Assembly: GCA_041602035.1 (NCBI GenBank)
Contig: JBFIHA010000013.1
Coordinates: 1,464-65,463 of the forward strand
Direction: 5' to 3'
From: Gemmatimonadales bacterium
GTDB lineage: Bacteria; Gemmatimonadota; Gemmatimonadetes; Gemmatimonadales; GWC2-71-9
Length of the DNA: 64,000 nt
A program made the translations under genes and the position numbers. The notes below the pieces were generated by a model that searched no databases, was not told the origin of the DNA, and saw only the letters and a program-made list of their open reading frames with translations. Below, one piece after another: positions 12,032 to 24,827 of this stretch. Numbering within the stretch: position 1 is the first letter of the stretch; the number at the start of each line of letters is the position of its first letter.

Positions 12032-12040
12032 GTTCGCCCC

Positions 12041-13528
12041 GTGATCCGTGCCAACTCCTACGGCATCGTGCCCTTCCGAGACCGGACGGTCGTACATCTC
12101 ACGGCCGAATACTGGCCGTTTGCGCGCACCGGCGGTCTGGCCGAGGCCGTGAGAGGGTTGGCGGAGTACCAGATCCGAGTCGGCCAGGACGCGGCGATCA
12201 TCATGCCGCTCTACCGATCCGTCCGCGACTTCACCGACCAGGTCACGCCAACGATGGAACCATTTGCCGTCCCGGTGGGCGATCACGTGGAGGAAGCCCG
12301 CCTCTACCGCTACACGGGCACGGACACGCAGGTGAGGGTGTTCTTCGTGGAGCACGACGGGCACTTCGACCGCGATGGCCTCTACGGCACCGAGCATGGG
12401 GATTATCCCGACAACCTTCGCCGATGCGCGTTCCTTTGCCGGGCCGCACTCCACGCGCTACCGACCCTGGTCCCGAATTGCGCCATTCTCCACGCCCACG
12501 ATTGGCACACGGCACTCGTCATGCCGTACCTGCGGTACACCTTTGCCGGTCAGCCGTCCTACGATCGCTTGGGTGCGGTGCTCTCAGTGCACAACGCCGC
12601 CTATCAGGGCCACTTCCCGGAGCATGCGGTGCAGTCGATCGGATTGCCTCCGAGCATGTATGACTGGCGGATCATGGAGTGGTACGGGCGGATGAATGTG
12701 CTCAAAGGCGGCTTGTCGTATACCGACCTCGCGACGACGGTGAGTCCCACCCATGCGGCCGAGCTCCGTACGCCGGACGGCGGGTTTGGGCTGCACGATC
12801 ATTTCATCGGACTCGGTGACCGATTCGTCGGCATTCTGAACGGCATCGACTACGCGATTTGGGATCCCGGGACGGATCGCGACATCACGGCGCAGTACCG
12901 AATCGATCACCTGGCACCCAAGCGCGGCTGCAAGACCGCACTCCAGCGTGTCTACGGTCTGCCACGCCGCTCGCGTACGCCGGTGTTCGTGATGAGCGCA
13001 CGCCTGGTGGAACAAAAGGGATTCGACCTCATTCTCGAACCAGGACTACTGGCGCAGTTCGACGCGCAGTTCATCTTTCTCGGGCGCGGCGACGTGCACT
13101 ACGAGCGGTTGCTGCAAGAGCTAGCGAGCGCGCTCCCCGACAAGGTCGCGGTGCCGCTCGACTTCACCGAACGACTCGAACACCGCCTGCTCGCCGGAGC
13201 CGATGCGCTGTTGATGCCGTCGCAGTTCGAGCCCTGCGGACTCACCCAGATGCGGGCGCAACGGTACGGCGTGCTTCCTGTGGCCCGTCGGGTCGGTGGA
13301 CTCAGCGACACCATCGTCGACGGAGAGACCGGATTCCTGTTCGACGAGTATCGACCGACCGGGCTGGCGCGTGCCTTACGGCGGGCCATTGCCCAGTATC
13401 ACGATCGTGAAGCGTGGACGGCCATGATGACGAAGGCCATGCGTCAGGATTTCAGCTGGGGGCCATCCGCCGCGCGCTACCAAGAGGTCTACCACCGAGC
13501 CAGCGCACGAGCGCGGCGCCACCACTGA
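12041..13528 (+). CDS. glgA: Glycogen synthase (GT5)
   Basis: GTG start. VHLTAEYWPFARTGGLAEAV (KTGGL-like motif). PSQFEPCGLTQM near the C-terminus. Confidence 0.9.
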   Translation: MIRANSYGIVPFRDRTVVHLTAEYWPFARTGGLAEAVRGLAEYQIRVGQDAAIIMPLYRSVRDFTDQVTPTMEPFAVPVGDHVEEARLYRYTGTDTQVRVFFVEHDGHFDRDGLYGTEHGDYPDNLRRCAFLCRAALHALPTLVPNCAILHAHDWHTALVMPYLRYTFAGQPSYDRLGAVLSVHNAAYQGHFPEHAVQSIGLPPSMYDWRIMEWYGRMNVLKGGLSYTDLATTVSPTHAAELRTPDGGFGLHDHFIGLGDRFVGILNGIDYAIWDPGTDRDITAQYRIDHLAPKRGCKTALQRVYGLPRRSRTPVFVMSARLVEQKGFDLILEPGLLAQFDAQFIFLGRGDVHYERLLQELASALPDKVAVPLDFTERLEHRLLAGADALLMPSQFEPCGLTQMRAQRYGVLPVARRVGGLSDTIVDGETGFLFDEYRPTGLARALRRAIAQYHDREAWTAMMTKAMRQDFSWGPSAARYQEVYHRASARARRHH

Positions 13529-13535
13529 CGGTATC

Positions 13536-15230
13536 ATGGACTTTGTGCTGACCCTCCACAGCCACCTCCCCTACGTGCTCAATCACGGTCGGTGGCCGCA
13601 CGGGAGTGACTGGCTGTGTGAGGCCGCCATCGACACCTACCTGCCGCTCATCGAGTCGTTGACCCAGTTGGCTCGCGAAGACGTCCATGCCCCAATCACC
13701 ATCGGGGTGACACCGGTGCTCGCGAATCAGCTCGCCCACCCCTCGTTCGTGGACGAGCTGGAACACTTGTTCGCCGAACGGCTCAAGGCCTGCGACCGGG
13801 CACCGACGGAGCTGGCGGAGACCGGTGATCACGACCTGATCCCGCTGGCAGCCTACTGGCAGGCTCGGCTCGAGCGGCTGCGACGGCTGTTCCGCACGCA
13901 CGGCGACATCATTGCGGCCCTGCGGCGCCTCGAGAGCGCGGGACGATTGGAAATCATCGGTTCGGCGGCCACCCACGGGTATCTTCCACTCCTCGGCACC
14001 GAGGCGAGCATTCGACTGCAATTGCACGTGGGATACGCCGAACATCGGCGCCTGTTCGGCCGAGCGCCCCGCGGCTGCTGGCTGCCGGAATGTGCCTATC
14101 GCCCGCGTGGACCGTGGTCGGTATCGGCATCGCCGACGGCGGAGCGGCCCGGGATCGAGGAGCACCTCGCGGCGGTGGGATTCCAGTATTTCTTCACCGA
14201 CTCGCATCTCGCGGCCGCCGGGACCCCGCTGGGTGCCTACCATGACGTGCCTCTGGGTGCAGAACGATTCGACGCCGAGCGTCACGATGACGCGGCGCCG
14301 AAACAAGGCCGCGCTGGGAGGCGGTCCCCGTACTGGTCATACCGGGTCTCCGCGCCGGACGCTGCCGAGGTTCGGGCCTTCGTGCGCGATCCCGAATCGT
14401 CGATGCAGGTGTGGAGTCGGGATCGCGGTTATCCCGGCGACGAGTGGTATCTCGAGTTCCACAAGATTCGGTGGCCCGGCGGCCTCAAGCTATGGCGTGT
14501 GACTGGCCCGCGCGTCGATCTCGGAGGCAAGCGGTCCTACGTTCCCGAGACGGCAGAGTCCCGAGCCAGCGAGCACGCTCGTCACTTCGCCTACCTGCTG
14601 CAGCACTTGGCGGCCGAACGCTCCACCGTCGGGGACGTGATCGTGGCCCCGTTCGATACCGAGTTGTTCGGGCACTGGTGGTTCGAGGGGATTCACTTCA
14701 TCGCCGATCTCTATCGCGCACTCGCTCGGGTCGGCGGAGTGCGTCCCATGACGGGGACCGCACATCTCCGGCGACACCCCCGCCCACCCGGCATTCGGCT
14801 CTCCGAAGGATCATGGGGTGCGAATGGCGACCACAGCATGTGGCTGAACGACGGCACGCGCTGGACGTGGGATCGCCTATGGCCGCTGGAACACCGGTTC
14901 TGGCGCGCGGCGCGCACGGCGATCGGGATCGAGGAGCTCCGCCCCATTGTGGCGCAGGCGGCACGAGAGCTGCTCCTCGCGCAGTCGTCGGATTGGCAGT
15001 TCGTGATCTCGACGGCCGTCGCAGCCGACTACGCCGAACGTCGGTTCATCGGCCACTGCGAGGCTGTCGAGGGGCTGGTGGACGCCTTGCAGCCCGACGC
15101 CACGCCGGAGCGACGCCGACAGGCCGCAGACGAGGCCGCGACCCTGCGCGTACGGGACGACCTGTTCCCCGACGTGCTCGCGTCCGTCCAGGCCGTCCTC
15201 GATGCGGAACTCGATCCGGTCTCGGAATGA
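13536..15230 (+). CDS. GH57-family 1,4-alpha-glucan branching enzyme-like protein (GH57 + DUF1957)
   Basis: MDFVLTLHSHLPYV N-terminus, TELFGHWWFEG motif, length about 560 aa, typical of GH57 branching enzymes. Confidence 0.85.
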   Translation: MDFVLTLHSHLPYVLNHGRWPHGSDWLCEAAIDTYLPLIESLTQLAREDVHAPITIGVTPVLANQLAHPSFVDELEHLFAERLKACDRAPTELAETGDHDLIPLAAYWQARLERLRRLFRTHGDIIAALRRLESAGRLEIIGSAATHGYLPLLGTEASIRLQLHVGYAEHRRLFGRAPRGCWLPECAYRPRGPWSVSASPTAERPGIEEHLAAVGFQYFFTDSHLAAAGTPLGAYHDVPLGAERFDAERHDDAAPKQGRAGRRSPYWSYRVSAPDAAEVRAFVRDPESSMQVWSRDRGYPGDEWYLEFHKIRWPGGLKLWRVTGPRVDLGGKRSYVPETAESRASEHARHFAYLLQHLAAERSTVGDVIVAPFDTELFGHWWFEGIHFIADLYRALARVGGVRPMTGTAHLRRHPRPPGIRLSEGSWGANGDHSMWLNDGTRWTWDRLWPLEHRFWRAARTAIGIEELRPIVAQAARELLLAQSSDWQFVISTAVAADYAERRFIGHCEAVEGLVDALQPDATPERRRQAADEAATLRVRDDLFPDVLASVQAVLDAELDPVSE

Positions 15231-17239
15231 CACCACCGCTGCGCTCGGCCATCATCCACGCCCACTTCTACCAGCCGCCGCGCGAGGACCCGTGGCTCGA
15301 TGAAGTGCCACACCACGTGTCAGCGGCACCCCACCACGACTGGAACGAGCGGATCGAGCGCGAGTGCTATCGCGCCGTCGTCGCGGCCCGCGTTGCCACC
15401 CCGGACGGCCGAATCGCGAAGATCGTGAACACGCTGCGAGCGGTGAGCTTCAACGTCGGTCCCACGTTGCTGTCGTGGCTGGCGTCCGAGGCGGGCCCCA
15501 CCTACGCAGCCATCCTCGAGGCCGACCGCGACAGCTGCGCGCGGCGTGGGGGCCACGGCAACGCGATGGCGATGCCGTTCCATCACTCCATCCTCCCGCT
15601 GGCGTCACGCCGCGACAAGCGGACGGAAGTCCTGTGGGGTATCGCCGACTTCGAGCATCGGTTCGGCCGGCAGCCGGAGGGAATGTGGCTCCCCGAGACC
15701 GCCGTGGATCCAGATACGCTCGACGTGCTGGCCGAAGCCGGCATTCGCTTCACAGTGGTCGCACCACATCAGGTGCGCGCCGCGCCGCCGAGCGGCCTGC
15801 CCGGCCTCTACCGGACACCCACGGGCCGCTCGATCGCCGTGTTCGTCTACGACGGCTCGACTTCCCACGGCGTGGCCTTCGGTGGCTTGCTTCACGACGC
15901 ACGTGAGTGGGAGCGCCGCATGGTGGACGGCGCGGATCGTCGCCTGGTGGCCATTGCCACCGACGGTGAGACGTACGGTCACCATCACAAGTTCGGCGAA
16001 ATGGCGCTGGCAGCGGTGCTCGAAGGACTCGAGTACCGGCCAGACGTGGAGGTCGAGAACTTCGCCTCCTTCCTGGAACGTCATCCGCCGCAGCACGAGG
16101 TCGAGCTCGTGGCACCGACGTCGTGGAGTTGCGTGCACGGAGTCGAACGATGGCGGGCAGACTGTGGCTGCAAAATGCATCCAGATCGCGTCTCACAGCA
16201 GCGATGGCGCTCCATCCTGCGAGAGAGCCTCGACTGGCTCGCCGAGGAGTTGCACACCGTATTCGAACGAGAAGGTGGCCCGCTCTTCGGAGATCCGTGG
16301 AACGCACGCGACGAGTTTGGAGTGGCCGTGGTGAGTGATGACCGGACGCGGTGGACGTTCGCCGACGGCCACGTGCGGTCGACCGAACCCGAGCAGCGCA
16401 GGCGCGCGGTCGAACTGCTCGAGATGGAACGCAACGCCCTCAGGATGTTCACGTCCTGTGGGTGGTTCCACGACGACATCGGGGGGATCGAGGCAAGCCA
16501 AGTGCTGCGCTATGCCGCGCGGGCTATCGACCTTGCCGGCACCAGTCACGCTGCTCGGCTTGAGAACGGGCTGCGGCACCGCCTCGCGGCGGCCAGGAGT
16601 AACGATCCGACCGTCGGAAGCGGTCGCGACGTGTACGACGCGGGGCGCCCGGCGATCCCCGCCGACGCTCGGGTTGCTGCCGGTGGGAATGCCTGCCTTA
16701 CCGTGGGGATACCCCTCCCCGCAGCCGTCGGGCCGTTCGACCTGCGGTCCGTGGAGAGCGGAGATCACGGTGTGACTATCGAGGTATCCGACCGGCGCAC
16801 CGGCACGAGCCGAACGTGGCAGGCCCGCACGACCCGTCCGAGCACTGGCCGTCTGCACCTGCGGGTCTCCAGTGCCGACCCGGACACCACGTACACGGCC
16901 TCGGTCACCGACCTGCCGTTCGACATCCTTCGCACCGTACGGCCGGCGCTGTACGCCGCCATCGTGCAAACGCACTACCTCGAGGAGGAGCGCCGAGCCC
17001 TACTGTCGGGCGCGGACCAGGTGGACGTGGCACGGCGTGTGTTGATCCGTCTTGTCGACCGTCTGGCGGGCGGCGCTGAGGATTGCAGGCCGCTTCACGA
17101 CCTACTGGATCTCTTCGACTTGCTCGAACGTCACTATCCGTTCGGCGCGCAGACGCAGCTCTACCGGGTGTGGGAAACCGCGGACGGCGATCGACGACGT
17201 GCCCTCGGGTCGGTCGCGCATCGCATGGGATTCGCCTGA
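15227..17239 (+). CDS. GH57-family glycoside hydrolase with DUF3536-like C-terminal region; specificity unknown
   Basis: ATG at 15227 overlaps the upstream stop (ATGA). N-terminus HAHFYQPPREDPW. ATDGETYGHHH motif. Confidence 0.8.
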   Translation: MTPPLRSAIIHAHFYQPPREDPWLDEVPHHVSAAPHHDWNERIERECYRAVVAARVATPDGRIAKIVNTLRAVSFNVGPTLLSWLASEAGPTYAAILEADRDSCARRGGHGNAMAMPFHHSILPLASRRDKRTEVLWGIADFEHRFGRQPEGMWLPETAVDPDTLDVLAEAGIRFTVVAPHQVRAAPPSGLPGLYRTPTGRSIAVFVYDGSTSHGVAFGGLLHDAREWERRMVDGADRRLVAIATDGETYGHHHKFGEMALAAVLEGLEYRPDVEVENFASFLERHPPQHEVELVAPTSWSCVHGVERWRADCGCKMHPDRVSQQRWRSILRESLDWLAEELHTVFEREGGPLFGDPWNARDEFGVAVVSDDRTRWTFADGHVRSTEPEQRRRAVELLEMERNALRMFTSCGWFHDDIGGIEASQVLRYAARAIDLAGTSHAARLENGLRHRLAAARSNDPTVGSGRDVYDAGRPAIPADARVAAGGNACLTVGIPLPAAVGPFDLRSVESGDHGVTIEVSDRRTGTSRTWQARTTRPSTGRLHLRVSSADPDTTYTASVTDLPFDILRTVRPALYAAIVQTHYLEEERRALLSGADQVDVARRVLIRLVDRLAGGAEDCRPLHDLLDLFDLLERHYPFGAQTQLYRVWETADGDRRRALGSVAHRMGFA

Positions 17240-17242
17240 GCC

Positions 17243-19165
17243 ATGGAACCGTTGCGCTTCGTGTTTGGCATTCACGTCCACCAGCCGGTAGGGAACTTCG
17301 ACCACGTGTTCGAGGAGCACGTGCAGGGCGTCTATCTGCCGTTCCTCACGGCCGTTGCGGACCGAGACTTCACTCCGATCGCGCTCCACGTCTCCGGACC
17401 CCTACTCGAGTGGCTGGAGCACCACGACGCGCGCTATCTCGATCTCATCGGTCGACTGGCGGCGGACGGCAAACTCGAGTTGCTGCTGGCGGGATTCTAC
17501 GAGCCAATTCTGATCGCGATTCCCCGTGAGGATCGCCTGGAACAGATCGGATGGATGCGGGACGCGCTCCGGGTCCGGTTCGGGGTCGACGCCACCGCGC
17601 TGTGGCTCACCGAGCGCGTGTGGGAACCGGGGCTGCCGGCCGACTTGGTGGACGCCGGGGTCGAGTGCGTCCTGGTGGACGATCGGCACTTCCTCGTGAC
17701 AGGGTTCGAGCGCGACGATCTCCACGCCCCGTACCGCACAGATAGTGACGGGCGCACGGTGGTGCTCCTCCCGATCGACGAGCGCCTCCGGTATTTGATC
17801 CCGTTCCAGCCCCCGAGCGCTACGGCAGGCTACCTGCGCGGACTGCGTGACAGCGGGCGACAGCTCTCCGTGTTCGCCGATGACGGCGAGAAGTTCGGCG
17901 GCTGGCCGGGGACGAAGGCGTGGGTGTACGAGCGCGGCTGGCTGGACGCCTTTTTCGACGCCATGGGACGACTGCGGGATGAGCAGGTCGTGCGACTCGT
18001 GACCCCCTCGCAAGCGTGGCGTGAGGTGGAGAGCGCCGGTCTGGCCTACCTCCCCACGGCGTCGTATCGGGAGATGGAAGGCTGGTCGCTCCCACCCCGA
18101 GCTGCGACCCGCCTAGAACACGTCGAGCACGAGTGGGGAAAGGACCGCCTCGCCGGGGGAGACGGCGCCCTGATCCGCGGCGGTCATTGGCGGAACTTCC
18201 TGGCCAAGTATCCCGAGTCCAACCGGATGCACAAGAAGGTGCTGCGGCTCTCGCAGCTGTGTCGCAAACGGGGAAACCCTCCCGGACCCCGACGAGACAT
18301 CGGTCGCGCGCAGTGCAACGATGCCTACTGGCATGGGGTGTTTGGGGGCCTGTATCTCCCCCACCTACGCGCAGGCCTCTGGCGGCACCTCGCGCGCGCC
18401 GAGGCTCAGCTGCGTGCGGGGGAATCGCTGGCGCACGAGACGCTCGACCTTCATGGCGACGGGCACGACGAGCTGTGGGTTCACTCCGGATTGTTCTCGG
18501 CCGTCGTGAGCCCCAGGCGGGGGGGAGCGATCGAGGAATACACGCGCTTTCAGGACGAAGTGAACTACGCCGATACCTTGACGCGTCGTGTCGAGGCCTA
18601 CCACCGAGAGGTCGCGCACGGCCCGAACTCCGATTCGGAGACCGACGCGGCGGTGCGCCAGCACGCCGACTCCGAGCAGACACGTCCGCGGCGCGCGATG
18701 CCGCCGCGGGACCATCACGACCGGGTCATGCTGGTCGATCGGGTGATCGGACACGATCTCGGCGAGGCCGAATACGCCCGAGCTGACTACGTACCGGTCG
18801 CGTCGTGGGTAGGATCACCGATGAACATCACCGTGACGCATGATGCCGACGCGCTCCTGGTCAGCCTCACGCCAATCGACGACCATCGCCTGATCCGCAA
18901 GGAGCTTCAATTTGCGCCCGGCGGGCAGTTGACGGTACGCTACACTTGGCGCCCTGAGGCCTTTCCAACCCACTGTTGGTTCGCGCCCGAGATTTCGGTG
19001 CCGGCCGATCCATCGCTCGTATGCCGACCGAGCACGACCGTGTGGCACTATCCGATCTCAACGGTGGCCAAATCAGAGCGCGGGCTGGAGGAAACTGTCC
19101 AGGGACTCTCCTTCACCCCACTGTGGCCCGTGGAACTCGGCGAGGCATCCTTCACCCTCTTTTGA
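17243..19165 (+). CDS. GH57-family 4-alpha-glucanotransferase/amylase-like protein
   Basis: Starts 4 nt after the previous stop. FVFGIHVHQPVGNF N-terminus. DDGEKFGGWPG motif. About 640 aa, like archaeal/thermophile GH57 glucanotransferases. Confidence 0.8.
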   Translation: MEPLRFVFGIHVHQPVGNFDHVFEEHVQGVYLPFLTAVADRDFTPIALHVSGPLLEWLEHHDARYLDLIGRLAADGKLELLLAGFYEPILIAIPREDRLEQIGWMRDALRVRFGVDATALWLTERVWEPGLPADLVDAGVECVLVDDRHFLVTGFERDDLHAPYRTDSDGRTVVLLPIDERLRYLIPFQPPSATAGYLRGLRDSGRQLSVFADDGEKFGGWPGTKAWVYERGWLDAFFDAMGRLRDEQVVRLVTPSQAWREVESAGLAYLPTASYREMEGWSLPPRAATRLEHVEHEWGKDRLAGGDGALIRGGHWRNFLAKYPESNRMHKKVLRLSQLCRKRGNPPGPRRDIGRAQCNDAYWHGVFGGLYLPHLRAGLWRHLARAEAQLRAGESLAHETLDLHGDGHDELWVHSGLFSAVVSPRRGGAIEEYTRFQDEVNYADTLTRRVEAYHREVAHGPNSDSETDAAVRQHADSEQTRPRRAMPPRDHHDRVMLVDRVIGHDLGEAEYARADYVPVASWVGSPMNITVTHDADALLVSLTPIDDHRLIRKELQFAPGGQLTVRYTWRPEAFPTHCWFAPEISVPADPSLVCRPSTTVWHYPISTVAKSERGLEETVQGLSFTPLWPVELGEASFTLF

Positions 19166-19173
19166 CAGCCGCC

Positions 19174-19683
19174 ATGGACTGCCCGTATTGCCAGCACCCG
19201 ATCGGTGTCCACTCGCGCTTTTGCGACGAGTGTGGCAAACCCGTGGTGACCGAAAACGTGTCCGTTCAGCAGGCCATACTCAGCGGCGAGTTCGACACCG
19301 GCGCGTTGGCCCGCCTCCGCAAGGAGAAGCGGCAGCTCGCGGAGCGACTCAACACGTTGCTCGAAGGCGCCTTGGGCCGCGTGCTCACCGACGACGAGCG
19401 GCGCTCTTGGGAGGTGCTCTATACCGAGTGGAAGACGATCACCGACGAGCTGACCGCACGGATGAACTATCTCGAAGTCCGGCAGGAGTCGGATCGGCGC
19501 CAGGCAGAGCGGCGCCAGGCGGAGCGGCGGAAGGAGTATCACGCGCTCGATTTCGGGGACCGCCGGTCGGGCCGCGATCGTCGCGTGGACGAGCGGCGTA
19601 GCGGCGTGGATCGACGCAATCCCTTCACCGATCCGGATTCCGGTCCCGGGCCCACCCACACTCCGCTGCCCGACGGAGGCTGA
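19174..19683 (+). CDS. Zinc-ribbon protein with a coiled-coil region and a C-terminal [DE]RR pentapeptide-repeat tail
   Basis: ATG 8 nt after the GH57 stop. MDCPYCQ...CDECG zinc ribbon. Tail reads DRRQAERRQAERRKE...DRRSGRDRRVDERRSGVDRR. Confidence 0.65.
   Translation: MDCPYCQHPIGVHSRFCDECGKPVVTENVSVQQAILSGEFDTGALARLRKEKRQLAERLNTLLEGALGRVLTDDERRSWEVLYTEWKTITDELTARMNYLEVRQESDRRQAERRQAERRKEYHALDFGDRRSGRDRRVDERRSGVDRRNPFTDPDSGPGPTHTPLPDGG
19495..19524 (+). repeat. Two tandem 15-nt units (CGGCGCCAGGCrGAG), plus a partial third, encoding the RRQAE repeats
   Basis: Read directly. Lies inside CDS 19174..19683. Confidence 0.8.
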
Positions 19684-19776
19684 CCGCCGAAACACCCTGC
19701 CCTTCACCCCCGTAGTGCCTCGAGACGGCGCGACGGTTCGCGGTCGTCGTGCATCGCTCCTTGAAGAGAGGAGCCT

Positions 19777-22194
19777 GTGACATCTCGGCACGTGACATCG
19801 CTTGCGGTGGGACTGGGAAATCGGCTCGCCCGACTCCAGCGGCACTGGCGTCGCCACCGCAGGTCCATCGTGCTCGGCAGTGTCATTGGGCTACCGCTCG
19901 TCCTCGGCACCGCCGTCGTGCTCGAGGCCGCGTTCCGCGCTCGGATCGACGATTCGAGATTCCACCGTCCGGCCCGGATCTACGCGCGGCCCCTGGTCAT
20001 CGAGCGGGGCGGCGAGCTCGATCGCACGCGGACCGAGGCGGCCCTCGACCGGTTGGGGTACCGTCGCACCCGCGCCAGACGGGTTGGCGTGGGCGAGTAC
20101 GCCGCCGGATCGTGGGAATGGGTGATCGGCCGCCGACCGTTTCGCTTTGCCGACCGCCTCGATCCGGGTGGCATCGTCACCGTTCGGCTGGGCTACTGGG
20201 GCGAGGTCAGCGACATTCGTGATGCGGATGGCATCCGGCACGACTACGTGGCACTGGAGCCCGAGATCATCCGCACGTTCGGTGGTCCTTCCCGGGCCGA
20301 CTGGACTCCGGTCGCGCTGACAGAAGTCCCCCCCTCCCTCGTGGCGGCCATTCTCACCGTGGAAGATCGGCGCTTCTACGAGCACCACGGTCTCGATGCT
20401 CGGAGGATCGTCGGGGCAGCGGTGGCAAACGTCCGGGCGGGCCGGATCGTTGAAGGTGCCAGCACGCTCACGCAGCAGTTGGCGAAGAACCTGTTTCTCT
20501 CCTCACGACGATCGGTGGTGCGCAAGCTGCGCGAAGCAGCCATGGCGACTGCGCTCGAGCTCCGGTACACCAAGGCTCAGATTCTCGAGGCCTATCTGAA
20601 CCACGTCTACCTGGGTCAGGACGGCGGACTCGCGATCCGCGGGGTCGGCCGAGCCGCGCGGTTCTACTTCGACAAGGATGTGAGTCAGCTCGACCTGTCC
20701 GAGGCGGCGCTGCTCGCCGCCATCATTCGCGGGCCAAGTCTCTACTCGCCATTCCGTCAGCCGGAACGTGCCCGTCTGCGCCGCGACCTCGTGCTGCAAC
20801 TCATGCGCGACCGCGAGGAGATCACCGAACGAGCGTTTCGCTCGGCGAGCAGCGCGTCGCTCGGCGTGCGACGTCAGCCAGAGTCGGCACCGGAGGCACG
20901 GTACTTTGCCGACTATGTCGCCAGCCGACTCGCCACTGCCCGGGGAGCGCACGTGCTGGAGCGTGGTGTGGCCGTGTTCACCACGCTCGATCCCCGCCTA
21001 CAACAGCTGGCTGAAACGGTCGTGCGGAACGAGCTGCGACGCCTGGAACGCCAGTATCCACGACTAGCCAGAAACCCCACACCGCTCCAGGCAGCCCTCG
21101 TGGCGACCGACCCGCGCACCGGAGAGATCCTGGCCATGGTGGGCGGGCGTGACTACGGCACGTCGCAGTTCAACCGTGCGGTGCTGGCCCAACGGCAGCC
21201 CGGCAGCGCGTTCAAGCCGATCGTCGCCCTCGCAGCACTCGCCCGGCCCGAGAACGACGGGTGGGACGATCCGACCTTCACCCTGGCCTCCACCCTCCGG
21301 GACGAGCCCTTGGCCGTCGAGACACCGGCAGGGGTATGGCAGCCGGTGAACTACGACCGCGAGTATCGCGGCTCGCTCACGCTACGGGAGGCGCTCGAGC
21401 GGTCACTCAACGTCCCCTTCGCACGCCTCGGCCTGGCAATCGGTCCGGAGCGGATCGTGCGCACCGCTCGCAAGCTCGGCATCCAGAGTGCGCTCCCGGC
21501 GGTCCCGAGCCTCGCCCTCGGGGCGGCAGACGTGACACCGCTCGAGATGGCGCGCGCGTTCGGGGTGTTCGCCGCGGGCGGGTATCGTGCTGACCCGCAG
21601 CACACGCTGGCCGTGATCGACGAGGATGGGACGGTGCTCGAGCAACTGACGCCCCGCGGTGAGCGCGTGTTTGACGAGGCGGAGGCGTACCTCGTGACCT
21701 CAGCCTTGCGGGGGGCCGTGGAGCGCGGGACCGGGCGTGGACTCCGCGCGTTGGGCGTGCGTGGGCCCGTGGCCGCCAAATCGGGCACGACGAACGACTT
21801 TCGCGACGGGTGGTTCATCGGGTATACGCCGACATTGGCGGTGGCCGTCTGGGTGGGTTTCGACGACGGACAGAGCATCGGACTCGCCGGATCGCGGGTC
21901 GCGATGCCCATCTTCGGTCGATTTCTCGCCGGTGCCACGACCGATGTGTCTCGCGATTTCACCATGCCCGATGGACTGGAGATCGTAGAGATCGATGCCG
22001 CAACCGGCCTCCGGGCGGGCCCCGGATGCTGGGGGGAACCCGAGGTCTTTCTCCGAGGCACCGCACCGACCGCCAGCTGCTCGCCGTATTGGACCGCGTC
22101 CCGAGCGGGCCGCTCACAGGATTCGGGGCTCCGCCGCTACGTCCGCTCGCTCATCCGGGAGCTGTCGCGACGGCTGAGCGGCGAACGCCGGTAA
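19777..22194 (+). CDS. mrcB: Class A penicillin-binding protein, PBP1B-type (TM, UB2H-like insert, GT51 transglycosylase, transpeptidase)
   Basis: GTG start after an AGAGAGGAG RBS. EDRRFYEHHGLD and GASTLTQQLAKN (GT51 motifs). SAFKP (SxxK), SLN and KSGTT transpeptidase motifs. Confidence 0.88.
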   Translation: MTSRHVTSLAVGLGNRLARLQRHWRRHRRSIVLGSVIGLPLVLGTAVVLEAAFRARIDDSRFHRPARIYARPLVIERGGELDRTRTEAALDRLGYRRTRARRVGVGEYAAGSWEWVIGRRPFRFADRLDPGGIVTVRLGYWGEVSDIRDADGIRHDYVALEPEIIRTFGGPSRADWTPVALTEVPPSLVAAILTVEDRRFYEHHGLDARRIVGAAVANVRAGRIVEGASTLTQQLAKNLFLSSRRSVVRKLREAAMATALELRYTKAQILEAYLNHVYLGQDGGLAIRGVGRAARFYFDKDVSQLDLSEAALLAAIIRGPSLYSPFRQPERARLRRDLVLQLMRDREEITERAFRSASSASLGVRRQPESAPEARYFADYVASRLATARGAHVLERGVAVFTTLDPRLQQLAETVVRNELRRLERQYPRLARNPTPLQAALVATDPRTGEILAMVGGRDYGTSQFNRAVLAQRQPGSAFKPIVALAALARPENDGWDDPTFTLASTLRDEPLAVETPAGVWQPVNYDREYRGSLTLREALERSLNVPFARLGLAIGPERIVRTARKLGIQSALPAVPSLALGAADVTPLEMARAFGVFAAGGYRADPQHTLAVIDEDGTVLEQLTPRGERVFDEAEAYLVTSALRGAVERGTGRGLRALGVRGPVAAKSGTTNDFRDGWFIGYTPTLAVAVWVGFDDGQSIGLAGSRVAMPIFGRFLAGATTDVSRDFTMPDGLEIVEIDAATGLRAGPGCWGEPEVFLRGTAPTASCSPYWTASRAGRSQDSGLRRYVRSLIRELSRRLSGERR

Positions 22195-22207
22195 TTCTCA
22201 GCAGCTG

Positions 22208-22237
22208 TTGACGGCCCCGCCCCACCGATCGTAATTG
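22208..22237 (+). promoter_or_regulatory. Sigma-70-like promoter candidate: TTGACG, 18 nt spacer, TAATTG
   Basis: Hexamers read directly about 35 nt upstream of the ATG at 22270. GAAAGGG RBS-like sequence at 22253-22259. Confidence 0.35.
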
Positions 22238-22269
22238 AGCCATCACCCACCGAGAAAGGGCGCCCGGCC

Positions 22270-22905
22270 ATGCGCATCGGACAGTCACTGGGCATCCTTG
22301 GAGTCCTCGCCGCGGCCAGCGCTGCGGCCATTCTCCTGGTCGGCGATCGCGGGCGAAGCCTCCGGCTCGGTCCCTTGGACGGGGCCGAACTCCCGCCGAT
22401 CCAGCTCGACCGCGTCGCCATAGGGAGCACGGCCCCCGACTTCAGGCTCCGCGCCCTGGACGGGTCGACGGTTGCCCTGTCCGAGTACCGTGGGGCAAAG
22501 AACGTCGTCCTGGTGTTCTACCGCGGGCACTGGTGACCCCACTGCGCTGCTCAGCTCGGGAAGCTGAAAGGGCTGCTGACGGAGGAACAACGGGCATCGA
22601 CGGAGATTCTGGCCGTTTCCGTCGACTCCCCCGCCGATCTCCGCAGAATGGTGGACCGCATTTCCGCCGACGACAGCGTGTTGCCCGACTTCCCGTTTCT
22701 CACCGATCCGGGCCACCGAGTCATCGATCGCTATGGGCTGTTCAACCAGGACGATCCGCGCGGCCGGGAAATCACCCATCCTGCCACATTCGTGATCGAT
22801 CGCGCAGGCGTCGTGCGGTGGCGGTTCGTGGAAGTCGACTACAAGATCCGGCCGAGTAACGAGGAAATCCTCGGCGTCCTGGAGCGGCTGCCGCGCGAGC
22901 CATGA
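22270..22905 (+). CDS. Membrane-anchored AhpC/TSA-redoxin (thioredoxin-fold) protein with an in-frame TGA at 22534-22536; candidate selenocysteine (UxxC) protein, alternatively a pseudogene
   Basis: ORFs 22270..22536 and 22648..22905 are in the same frame with no other stop between them. Read-through gives VVLVFYRGHW-[TGA]-PHCAAQLGKL, so the TGA sits at the first Cys of the W-C-x-x-C redox motif. Confidence 0.7.
22551..22567 (+). other. Candidate bacterial SECIS-like hairpin: 6-bp stem UCAGCU/AGCUGA with loop CGGGA, starting 14 nt after the UGA
   Basis: Base pairing worked out by hand. G-containing apical loop about 21 nt downstream of the UGA. The stem is short, so this is only suggestive. 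Confidence 0.4.
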
Positions 22906-22990
22906 GCCCAGGCGTGTCAACGGCGTGCAGCCTTGCCCGCGCCTCGGCTGACGGACAACTTGGGGTTTGACCGTCTTCGTCGGGAAACCC

Positions 22991-23359
22991 ATGAGCGCCT
23001 TAGCCGAGAGCTACACGCAGTTGTCCGCTAGGCTTCGCTCCCTGCTCGAAGCACGCGGGTTCGAGGTGAGCGACGAGCACCACCATGCCGACGCGTCAGG
23101 AGCGAAGTGCACGCTGCTCACAAAGGGGGCGGAGTCGTTCCGTCTGGTGTGGGACGCCGGCCAAAGCACGTTCCGCGTCGACTACTGCCCACGACGCCGC
23201 GACCGTTCGTGTCCGGCGTGGCACACCATGGTGGAAACCCCGTTTTCCCTTGGGGAGAGGGCGGGCCGGGAGGTCCAAGCCCTCGCTGCACAGATGGAGC
23301 AGACCCTGGCGCACCACTTTGCCGCTGCGTCCCTTTCGGAGACCTCCGACGGCGCGTGA
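22991..23359 (+). CDS. Hypothetical protein
   Basis: ORF with high-GC third-position bias. No recognisable motif. Start uncertain (TTG at 22967 or ATG at 22991). Confidence 0.4.
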   Translation: MSALAESYTQLSARLRSLLEARGFEVSDEHHHADASGAKCTLLTKGAESFRLVWDAGQSTFRVDYCPRRRDRSCPAWHTMVETPFSLGERAGREVQALAAQMEQTLAHHFAAASLSETSDGA

Positions 23360-23419
23360 TGCAGGTCATGCCGGAGTCGTGACCAACATCACAAGTCCTT
23401 TATTTGCAACAACTTACGC

Positions 23420-23448
23420 TTGACAACTCTGCCCGAGGCCCTTAACAT
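23420..23448 (+). promoter_or_regulatory. Sigma-70-like promoter: TTGACA, 17 nt spacer, TAACAT. A perfect 10-bp palindrome CAGACGTCTG at 23459-23468 sits just downstream.
   Basis: Consensus -35 element and 17-nt spacing in a locally AT-richer segment, about 85 nt upstream of the ATG at 23534. Confidence 0.5.
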
Positions 23449-23533
23449 CCGGGGTAGGCAGACGTCTGACGTTCACGCGCCCCGGCGGTGTCCGCCCCGC
23501 GGCACGAACGTCCTTCAGCTCAAGGAGTGGGCA

Positions 23534-24283
23534 ATGCGGTTCAATCGAGGATGGAGAGGGCTGGCGCTCCTGGCCGGGCTGTCCCTGGCAGTCGCTTGTA
23601 GCGACACCGGGGCGCCGTCGGCCGAAGAGGAAGCCCAGATCACGCAGGACGTGATGGCCTACGCGGCCGATGTCACGTCGGACGACGTCATCATGATGAC
23701 CCTGCTCGCCGACGGGGTGTTAGGGTCGGCACCGTCCGCGGCACCGCCGTTCGACGGAAACGTCAGCTATTCGCGGTCGGTCACCTTCTACGACGAGAAT
23801 GACGGCGTCCAAGATGCCTACGATCCGTTGCTCACGGCCAAGGTGAACATGGTCGTGGACTTCGAGGGCTCGCGCAGCTGGACCGGCGATCGCGGGACCA
23901 TGTCGGTTACCGTGGCCCGCCACCGCGACGTCACCGTTTCCAATCTGCTTGGTGAAGAAACCGAGCGAATCTGGGACGGCGCGGGGAACTCGGACGTGAA
24001 TCGCGTGCGACAGTCGGACGAGTTCGGTGAGCGCGTGTACGACTTCTCGGCCAGCACCGCCGTTGCGGCCGTAGTGATCCCGGTCCCGCGTGGAAGCGGA
24101 TGGCCCCTCTCGGGCTCCATCACCCGACACGTGACCGTCGAGATCGTGTCCGGCCTGGGCGATATGATGACACGCTCGCGCACCGTCATGGTCGAGTTCA
24201 ACGGAACCCAGTTCGTACCCATTACGATCAACGATCTGACCTGCACGCTGGACCTAGCGATGCGGTCGGTGAGCTGTGACTGA
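23534..24283 (+). CDS. Hypothetical lipoprotein
   Basis: AAGGAG RBS at 23522-23527. Signal peptide with lipobox-like LSLAVAC. No family recognised. Confidence 0.65.
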   Translation: MRFNRGWRGLALLAGLSLAVACSDTGAPSAEEEAQITQDVMAYAADVTSDDVIMMTLLADGVLGSAPSAAPPFDGNVSYSRSVTFYDENDGVQDAYDPLLTAKVNMVVDFEGSRSWTGDRGTMSVTVARHRDVTVSNLLGEETERIWDGAGNSDVNRVRQSDEFGERVYDFSASTAVAAVVIPVPRGSGWPLSGSITRHVTVEIVSGLGDMMTRSRTVMVEFNGTQFVPITINDLTCTLDLAMRSVSCD

Positions 24284-24319
24284 CGCGACATAGTGGCGCG
24301 GCACACGGCACCGTGATGG

Positions 24320-24348
24320 AACGGGTGGGCTTCGCGCCCACCCGTTTT
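24320..24348 (+). terminator. Rho-independent terminator: 11-bp stem AACGGGTGGGC/GCCCACCCGTT, loop TTCGC, then a T run
   Basis: Read directly, 37 nt after the stop at 24283. Confidence 0.75.
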
Positions 24349-24431
24349 CGTGTCGGCCGATTTTGCAAACCCCGGTGGGCTGCATACCTTTGCGCAGCAC
24401 CATTCGCGAGCTGGTGACCCGGGACGCGACC

Positions 24432-24827
24432 ATGGCGGCTCAACCAAAGGAATCCGGGAAGGTTCCCAAGCGGTTTCTGCCCGAGCGGCGGGTCGCCGAG
24501 CGGCGGGTCGCACCGGATCGGCGCGAGGCGGACCGGCGCGTGATCGACATGGCCGTCGAGCGCGAGCGGCGCAGGGACAGCGACCGACGGCGTCTTTGGG
24601 ACCGGCGGATGGTGGCGGAGCGGCGGTTCCCCCCTAATGATCAGTTTTCGTGGGACGACACCCTCACGATCCACCGCATGCTCGCCGACCCCACGCTCGA
24701 CGTCTCCTGTCCACGCTGTCACGGCCGGCTGCTGCTCGGACCATCGGACGCGGGGGCGGAGCTCCCGACCCGCGAGGTGCATTGCACGTCGTGCCGCTTC
24801 AGCGTGGCGATCGTCGACGACGGTTAG
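24432..24827 (+). CDS. Protein with an N-terminal [DE]RR pentapeptide-repeat region fused to a C-terminal zinc-ribbon domain
   Basis: ERRVAERRVAPDRREADRRV...ERERRRDSDRRRLWDRRMVAERR, followed by FSWDD...CPRC...CTSC. The C-terminal domain aligns with the protein at 9479..9715. Confidence 0.6.
   Translation: MAAQPKESGKVPKRFLPERRVAERRVAPDRREADRRVIDMAVERERRRDSDRRRLWDRRMVAERRFPPNDQFSWDDTLTIHRMLADPTLDVSCPRCHGRLLLGPSDAGAELPTREVHCTSCRFSVAIVDDG
24483..24512 (+). repeat. Two tandem 15-nt units (GAGCGGCGGGTCGCN) encoding ERRVA-ERRVA
   Basis: Read directly. Lies inside CDS 24432..24827. Confidence 0.8.

Follow-up and report, generated by a model that had tools for sequence, protein, structure and literature searches.

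Results

A redoxin gene split by one in-frame TGA

The gene studied here lies in a 64,000-nt stretch of contig JBFIHA010000013.1 from a Gemmatimonadales bacterium (assembly GCA_041602035.1), hereafter the window, where the list of open reading frames (ORFs) holds it as two pieces, 22270..22536 (88 aa) and 22648..22905 (85 aa). An initial annotation had proposed that the two pieces share one frame interrupted only by a TGA, that this TGA falls at the first Cys of a W-C-x-x-C motif in a redoxin-like protein, and that the gene therefore encodes either a selenocysteine (Sec)-containing thiol oxidoreductase or is a pseudogene. Translation of 22150-22950 agrees with the frame assignment: one frame runs from the ATG at 22270 to a terminal TGA at 22903-22905, and the TGA at 22534-22536 is the sole internal stop. 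Its context is ...KNVVLVFYRGHW-TGA-PHCAAQLGKLKGLL..., with VVLVFYRGHW directly before the codon and PHCAAQLGKL directly after it, and alignment with Cys-type homologues places it at the first Cys of the motif, as proposed. On the comparative evidence presented below, 22270..22905 is almost certainly a single gene and its in-frame TGA a genuine Sec codon (Table 1).

The segment between the TGA and the first downstream ATG has no start codon of its own, so that its translation requires read-through of the UGA. The public protein collection has one entry for each half, P0121 and P0123, the 88-aa piece occurring on 38 contigs and the 85-aa piece on 26.

Table 1. Features of the predicted selenoprotein gene in the window, and location of the selD genes linked to its orthologues
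Feature	Location	Strand	Details
Complete predicted selenoprotein coding sequence, Prx-like (AhpC/TSA fold) UxxC oxidoreductase	22270..22905	+	211 codons including Sec89, plus stop
N-terminal export signal or membrane anchor	22270..22344	+	MRIGQSLGILGVLAAASAAAILLVG; hydrophobic stretch behind a basic N-terminus
UGA predicted to be read as selenocysteine, residue 89	22534..22536	+	TGA in 43/43; TGC/TGT in distant homologues; aligned to the N-terminal Cys of CxxC
Redox motif U-P-H-C, Sec89-Cys92, preceded by Trp88	22534..22545	+	W88, P90 and C92 (near-)invariant
37 codons from the UGA to the first downstream ATG	22537..22647	+	pN/pS (nonsynonymous to synonymous divergence) 0.08-0.38 against six relatives; protein sequence kept in all homologues
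Putative SECIS upper stem-loop, U-CAGCU [CGGGA] AGCUG-A	22551..22567	+	6 bp, apical loop 22557-22561; conserved in 43/43
H-P-A-T loop, His170-Thr173	22777..22788	+	H170, P171 and T173 invariant; P171 aligned to AhpE Arg116
selD in relatives	~12.6-13.8 kb in each of L074-L078, L081-L083, L086, L088, L090		tblastn with E. coli SelD

The TGA is conserved and the downstream part is under purifying selection

With the read-through protein as query we scanned one genome per GTDB species and obtained 42 loci, 40 of which contain the motif region. The scan was unbiased toward TGA, one of the six peptide seeds even demanding a Cys codon, and all 40 loci carry TGA at the motif column; adding the window and the DNA of two protein matches described below (L001 and L002) brings the count to 43/43. 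The 42 relatives are 50-80% identical to the window protein and come from five phyla: most belong to Gemmatimonadota/Longimicrobiales, the others to Acidobacteriota/Blastocatellia, Syntrophobacteraceae, Methylomirabilota and one Clostridia metagenome-assembled genome (MAG). More distant homologues have TGC or TGT at the Sec column. Close relatives combining TGC with the loss of the hairpin found after the TGA had been looked for, and the opposite was found, as all 42 readable relatives have both the TGA and the hairpin.

The purifying selection is seen on both sides of the TGA. Indeed, against three syntenic relatives (L062, L063 and L089), which share with the window the gene order GH57, PBP1A, redoxin gene, orf130 onward, the ratio of nonsynonymous to synonymous substitution rates (dN/dS) is 0.06-0.22 ahead of the TGA and 0.10-0.17 beyond it; the 37 codons immediately after it are constrained as well (Table 1). 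The synonymous divergence from the relatives (pS 0.4-0.7) indicates that these are not assembly duplicates. A stop codon kept at a catalytic position across such wide divergence is not explained by a nonsense mutation.

A search of protein sequences gave "peroxiredoxin family" proteins from Gemmatimonadota, about 200 residues long. None exceeds 61% identity over its whole length, and almost all have W-C-P-[YF]-C. Two matches lead back to TGA forms: P0114, a C-terminal fragment that shares 79% identity with the window protein, is encoded by DNA (L001) with an in-frame TGA at the column, and P0004 shows a Trp there, yet its DNA (L002:933-935) reads TGA, the JGI pipeline having translated UGA as Trp. 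Seven further JGI "peroxiredoxin" products have a Trp at the Sec column (P0074, P0075, P0084, P0098, P0105, P0110 and P0112); since they cluster with the Sec forms in the tree, they probably represent the same UGA-as-Trp case. This neighbour-joining tree covers 160 family members. Its TGA forms make up two pure clades, one of 32 Gemmatimonadota sequences that includes the window and one of 17 sequences from several phyla, plus one singleton, and the minimum number of Cys/Sec switches is three.

Three homologues depart from the family pattern. P0118 (342 aa) reads HWRPYC, with an Arg in place of the Sec/Cys, and is considerably extended at its N-terminus. A Cys-type gene of Gemmatimonadaceae (L053:1774 onward, JANNEV010000045.1) has an in-frame TAG six codons past its CxxC (CPYCINQ, the stop, then KEMR), its match ending at residue 120, and looks like a real pseudogene or a sequencing error. 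Finally, in the chromosome of Gemmatimonadota bin75 (CP070666.1; L029/L087) the TGA and the hairpin are kept and the match begins at residue 74, the upstream frame reading WWARGSRS...; the copy may be damaged at its N-terminus, or a frameshift or an error of assembly may be responsible.

The initial annotation had also described the protein as membrane-anchored, and this description holds: a signal-like N-terminus is common to all 43 family members, at least 19 of which have a lipoprotein lipobox. No lipobox is found in the window's own clade, which leaves a type I signal or an uncleaved anchor. From these N-termini we infer that the redox domain faces the periplasm or cell envelope.

A near-invariant hairpin with compensatory changes follows the UGA

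In bacteria, Sec insertion depends on a hairpin, the selenocysteine insertion sequence (SECIS). The bacterial SECIS (bSECIS) model specifies a loop of 3-9 nt with a G in its first two positions, typically N1-G-[G/U]-N-N2, a stem of 4-16 bp, a UGA-to-loop distance of 16-37 nt and a minimum free energy (MFE) of at most -7.5 kcal/mol (PMC13188914). The small hairpin that had been pointed out in the window (22551..22567) is confirmed; it begins 14 nt past the UGA, with its loop at 20 nt, within the bSECIS spacing. The element also agrees with the model in its 5-nt loop CGGGA, with G at loop position 2 followed by another G, and in its 6-bp stem. The MFE of the 54-nt segment is -15.9 kcal/mol in the window and ranges from -7.9 to -21.3 kcal/mol across the family.

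Co-variation had been suggested as a check on this hairpin, and we ran it on a gap-free alignment of 78 nt around the TGA, taken from all 43 sequences. The family consensus is CAGCUY-GGN-RAGCUG, with a loop C/U-G-G/U-N-G/A and a stem of 6-7 bp. The stem CAGCU/AGCUG is near-invariant: pair 27-37 is G-C in 42 sequences and A-U in one, the double change occurring in L041 (CAACUC...GAGUUG). At the loop-closing pair 30-34 we found C-G in 23 sequences, U-A in seven and a mismatch in 13, the window having C.A; at the basal pair 24-40, G-C in 17, U-A in 15 and no pairing in 11. Altogether three column pairs change on both sides and none on one side only. Moreover, 92% of the cells are paired; sliding the 3' arm by 1-3 columns lowers this to 25-55%, and none of 500 shuffles matches the observed pairing or covariation score. 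RNAalifold predicts the same helix independently.

The codons of the stem are frozen at their synonymous sites. The first Leu is encoded by CTC or CTT, never by CTG, the second by CTG in 42 sequences and TTG in one; the Gln codon is CAG in 42 and CAA in one, the CAA occurring in the same sequence as the TTG. A few positions beyond the hairpin, Leu codons vary freely.

A selenocysteine-type selD is linked to the gene in one branch

In 11 Gemmatimonadota/Longimicrobiales loci, selD lies ~2.1 kb downstream of the orthologous redoxin gene (Table 1). All 11 linked selD genes themselves carry an in-frame TGA, at SHGAG-U-ACK, in the column of E. coli Cys17; a Sec-containing SelD is a classical selenoprotein. 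A further SelD scan (L106-L185) gave 62 readable motifs, 43 with TGA, mostly from Gemmatimonadota/Longimicrobiales, and 19 with Cys. In one MAG (JBCCEZ01) a selD with TGA and the redoxin gene are found on separate contigs; in another (CAZZEL01) a selD with TGA likewise lies on a different contig, the redoxin contig holding solely the C-terminal end of the gene. These selD genes bear a hairpin of their own, AGCUCGG-NAUGN-CCGAGCU, with apparent compensatory changes, for instance AAACUCGG...CCGAGUUG.

In the window, an Rfam scan and ARAGORN detected no tRNA and no Rfam family. TGA is the commonest ordinary stop there, ending 15 of the 28 long ORFs, including the redoxin gene, which excludes a reassigned code. 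A scan of the window for other read-through TGAs, based on third-position GC content, yielded antisense-frame artefacts only, at a threshold that also missed the redoxin gene.

The protein joins a peroxiredoxin scaffold to a thioredoxin-type motif

With U written as C, two Pfam models recognise the read-through product: AhpC-TSA (PF00578) over residues 51-184, at 107.5 bits for a cut-off of 26 (E = 5.6e-31), and Redoxin (PF08534) at E = 4.9e-22. This agrees with its earlier description as an AhpC/TSA-redoxin-like protein. The closest solved structure by sequence is M. tuberculosis AhpE (PDB alignment, E = 2.5e-16). For a view of the fold we used an AlphaFold (AF2) model of the Cys homologue P0002, which in the multiple alignment shares 52% identity with the window protein. 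This model (mean confidence, pLDDT, 85.7) has a TM-score of 0.86 to AhpE, and places the CxxC at the N-terminus of a helix (88-100) and an isolated N-terminal helix at residues 9-23.

In the alignment to AhpE, the catalytic Pro/Thr/Arg triad of peroxiredoxins (Prx) is absent: the Pro is replaced by Arg85, the Thr by Sec89 and Arg116 by Pro171. Cys92 is the residue aligned with the peroxidatic Cys of AhpE, Sec89 standing at the Prx Thr. Pro171 belongs to the H-P-A-T loop and presumably has the cis conformation known from thioredoxin folds. Together these comparisons show, for the predicted protein, a Prx (AhpC/TSA) scaffold with a thioredoxin-type W-U-P-H-C motif and cis-Pro loop, devoid of the Prx triad.

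No NCBIfam model attains its cut-off on the window protein. A peroxiredoxin proper, including PrxU with its TxxU, was rejected, as the PxxxTxxC(U) motif and the Arg are missing and the scores are far below the cut-offs for PrxU (NF040737; 45 bits against 270) and BCP (54 against 140). Membership of the TlpA, ResA or DsbE families was likewise rejected (25 bits against 230, 50 against 170 and 24 against 359, respectively), as was the SelL-related redox protein (NF040769; 48.9 against 120).

Genomic neighbourhood

Upstream of the gene, 12032-22194 holds a glycogen/alpha-glucan set with a GT5 glycogen synthase and a pair of GH57 enzymes. One of the pair carries a branching-enzyme C-terminal domain, the other domains of the amylase/4-alpha-glucanotransferase type. 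A class A penicillin-binding protein (PBP1A, 19777-22194) ends 75 nt ahead of the selenoprotein start codon. Downstream, at 22967-24827, stand three consecutive ORFs of 130, 287 and 154 aa with no Pfam match, two of which are found in all three syntenic genomes, the 287-aa ORF in L063 and L089 only. The neighbouring genes, that is the glycogen enzymes, PBP1A, the three Pfam-less proteins, an S1/P1 nuclease, an AstE-like protein and an M16 peptidase, give no functional hint.

Discussion

Of the two options left by the initial annotation, the first, a Sec-containing thiol oxidoreductase, is strongly supported by the TGA found in 43/43 sequences, by the hairpin and by the purifying selection on both sides of the codon. 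We have very high confidence that the gene genuinely encodes Sec, and high confidence in the fuller explanation, an exported or anchored Sec-containing Prx-like oxidoreductase produced by SECIS-driven recoding. The occurrence of recoding is indicated comparatively, and we infer the decoding factors from the established bacterial Sec pathway. The hairpin 14 nt past the UGA would recruit SelB with Sec-tRNA(Sec) to the ribosome.

At the level of the enzyme, Sec89 would be the exposed nucleophile, and its target in the cell envelope would be a disulfide or a sulfenate, or possibly a peroxide. Cys92 would resolve the intermediate to give an intramolecular selenenylsulfide, after which a DsbD/CcdA-type reductant of the envelope would restore the reduced enzyme. 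That the chemistry is specifically that of a thiol-disulfide reductase is a proposal that we favour only slightly. One Cys-type homologue, P0013 (L105, ENA ERZ25067246 contig_11), lies between a DsbD gene (DsbD_N, DsbD_TM, Thioredoxin_7) and a DsbA-like gene, and this neighbourhood hints at an envelope reductive pathway for the redoxin family.

Several observations weigh against this interpretation. With regard to decoding, tblastn with the E. coli proteins found no SelA, SelB or SelD homologue in the window, and selA, selB and tRNA-Sec were not found within 10 kb of the redoxin and selD genes (ARAGORN on the 40, the wider-flank and the selD loci; tblastn). The Sec machinery is documented through selD alone, and in relatives alone. 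As for the function, neither DsbD nor CcdA was found beside the Sec-type genes, the one related finding being a weak DsbA-like match (L069). In the literature, the grade given to the selenoprotein family to which we assign the gene below is "predicted with high confidence" (PMC13188914).

Other points of this kind concern the hairpin itself. Taken alone, the window hairpin has -7.1 kcal/mol, a borderline value just short of the -7.5 threshold, and single-sequence folding of the surrounding 86 nt (22525-22610) is no stabler than that of shuffles (z = +1.58). Such folding has no power for a 17-nt hairpin in 66% GC DNA, and it is the comparative evidence that is decisive instead. The archetype of the bacterial SECIS is that of E. 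coli fdhF. The window element, a putative SelB site, resembles the bacterial consensus in forming a hairpin right after the UGA inside the coding sequence, in its loop pattern and in its 20-nt spacing, but it is very short, with only 6 bp, and a C.A mismatch occupies the loop-closing position (N1/N2). A lower stem (alignment columns 17-21 with 44-49) was considered and rejected, being just 55% paired. Furthermore, Cys-type homologues with QLxEL form weaker or shifted hairpins (-3.5 to -6.5 kcal/mol), so part of the pairing propensity comes from the Q-L-x-E/K-L codons themselves. The Cys-type genes of Gemmatimonas, with QLKEM, have no hairpin (-0.1 to -1.1 kcal/mol).

What other explanations can be proposed? 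The first accepts the recoding and makes the protein an envelope peroxidase, in which peroxide would oxidize Sec89 to a selenenic acid that Cys92 would then resolve, much as in glutathione peroxidase. In favour of this, Sec reacts very readily with peroxides, AhpC/TSA is the top Pfam family, the best PDB matches in sequence and fold are peroxiredoxins with AhpE first, and JGI names the homologues "peroxiredoxin" or "mycoredoxin-dependent peroxiredoxin". However, the Prx triad is absent, and a W-C/U-P-x-C motif with an H-P-x-T cis-Pro loop is the hallmark of TlpA/ResA/thioredoxin-type proteins; the NCBIfam peroxiredoxin models remain far under their cut-offs, and one Cys-type homologue is flanked by DsbD and DsbA-like genes. 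We consider a peroxidase unlikely, yet a serious proposal.

It is also conceivable, but improbable in our view, that the protein serves the selenium economy itself, for example as a reductase of the envelope preparing selenite or selenotrisulfides for uptake. If true, such a role would explain both the ~2 kb linkage to a Sec-type selD in the whole Gemmatimonadota/Longimicrobiales branch and the sharing of a gene with a near-invariant SECIS across five phyla.

The remaining explanations deny that Sec is inserted. The UGA could be a stop or a leaky stop, giving the 88-residue fragment and some near-cognate insertion of Trp or Cys, or it could be reassigned to Trp or Gly. The JGI translations, P0004 and the seven other proteins with W at the column, read in this sense. 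But TGA terminates more than half of the long ORFs of the window, and the 88-residue product ends ahead of the redox motif and would have no thioredoxin fold. A Trp in place of the CxxC nucleophile would abolish activity, which does not fit the strict conservation of the motif and of the domain after it; moreover, both the hairpin and the linkage to a Sec-type selD speak for decoding through SelB. We therefore regard a leaky stop or a reassigned codon as very improbable. The second option of the initial annotation, a TGC-to-TGA nonsense mutation in a Cys-type redoxin gene whose downstream part decays, would need a single base change and fits the 88-aa and 85-aa public calls and the lack of Sec machinery within the window, but it is effectively excluded by the identical TGA and intact frames across five phyla, the low downstream dN/dS, the conserved and covarying hairpin, and the different appearance of the apparently disrupted homologue L053, with its TAG elsewhere and its truncated match.

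Returning to the Sec-containing oxidoreductase, the initial annotation had referred to Prx-like UxxC proteins as a recognised bacterial Sec family, and this family exists in the literature, where it is defined by a conserved domain and a Sec motif, PF00578 and UxxC/UxxU (PMC9312934, PMC13188914, PMC2398784), with WP_010940744.1 of Geobacter as the reference member. It was first reported in the Deltaproteobacteria Geobacter, Syntrophus and Desulfotalea (PMC1794560); a survey of 5,200 genomes located it in 28 organisms (PMC5029168), and as "Prx-like 1 (pfam00578, UxxC)" it accounts for 225 sequences in the GOS metagenomes (PMC2398784). It has been known as a predicted selenoprotein family since 2004-2008. 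The window protein has both defining features, the PF00578 domain and a Sec in U-P-H-C at codons 89-92, and by the published definition alone the predicted protein belongs to this family, named "Prx-like thiol:disulfide oxidoreductase". The family and the clade studied here are alike in the Pfam domain, the UxxC motif and their bioinformatic prediction, and our clade also has Syntrophobacteraceae. They differ in that the members described here are exported, often as lipoproteins, share one near-invariant SECIS and, in 11 cases, are linked to a Sec-type selD. In the searchable literature we found no mention of selenoproteins or Sec use in Gemmatimonadota. As far as can be predicted, what is new is confined to the taxon, the occurrence of an export signal or lipoprotein form, the near-invariance of the SECIS and, in one branch, the linkage to selD.

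Comparison with better known redox proteins leads to a similar picture. AhpE of M. tuberculosis (Rv2238c; PDB 1xvw and 4x1u), a 1-Cys peroxiredoxin, is the closest by both sequence and fold, but it has the PxxxTxxC motif and catalytic Arg, is cytoplasmic and contains no Sec, whereas the window protein has Arg, Sec and Pro at these positions. With the extracytoplasmic thioredoxin-like reductases TlpA, ResA and CcmG/DsbE it shares the exported or anchored form, the W-C-x-x-C at a helix N-terminus and the cis-Pro loop; its scaffold is nearer to the peroxiredoxins, and the first Cys is replaced by Sec. Reductases of the TlpA/ResA/CcmG type are expected to depend on DsbD/CcdA. Finally, PrxU and the SelL-related proteins (NF040737, NF040769) are likewise selenoproteins of thioredoxin or Prx fold; PrxU has its Sec at the peroxidatic position, in TxxU, whereas in the window protein the Sec lies three residues earlier.

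In conclusion, these results call first for a correction of annotations. Public calls keep the gene as two unrelated small proteins or translate its UGA as Trp, and as a result the proteomes of at least 42 species-level genomes lack both the active-site residue and the whole enzyme. The compact, near-invariant SECIS, with its compensatory changes, would be a handy minimal model of how SelB recognises its target in bacteria other than Proteobacteria and Firmicutes. Current concepts of selenoprotein biology are unaffected. The results do indicate that uncultured Gemmatimonadota/Longimicrobiales, which are common in soil and sediment, use selenocysteine and have a selenoprotein in the cell envelope, many of them together with a Sec-type SelD.

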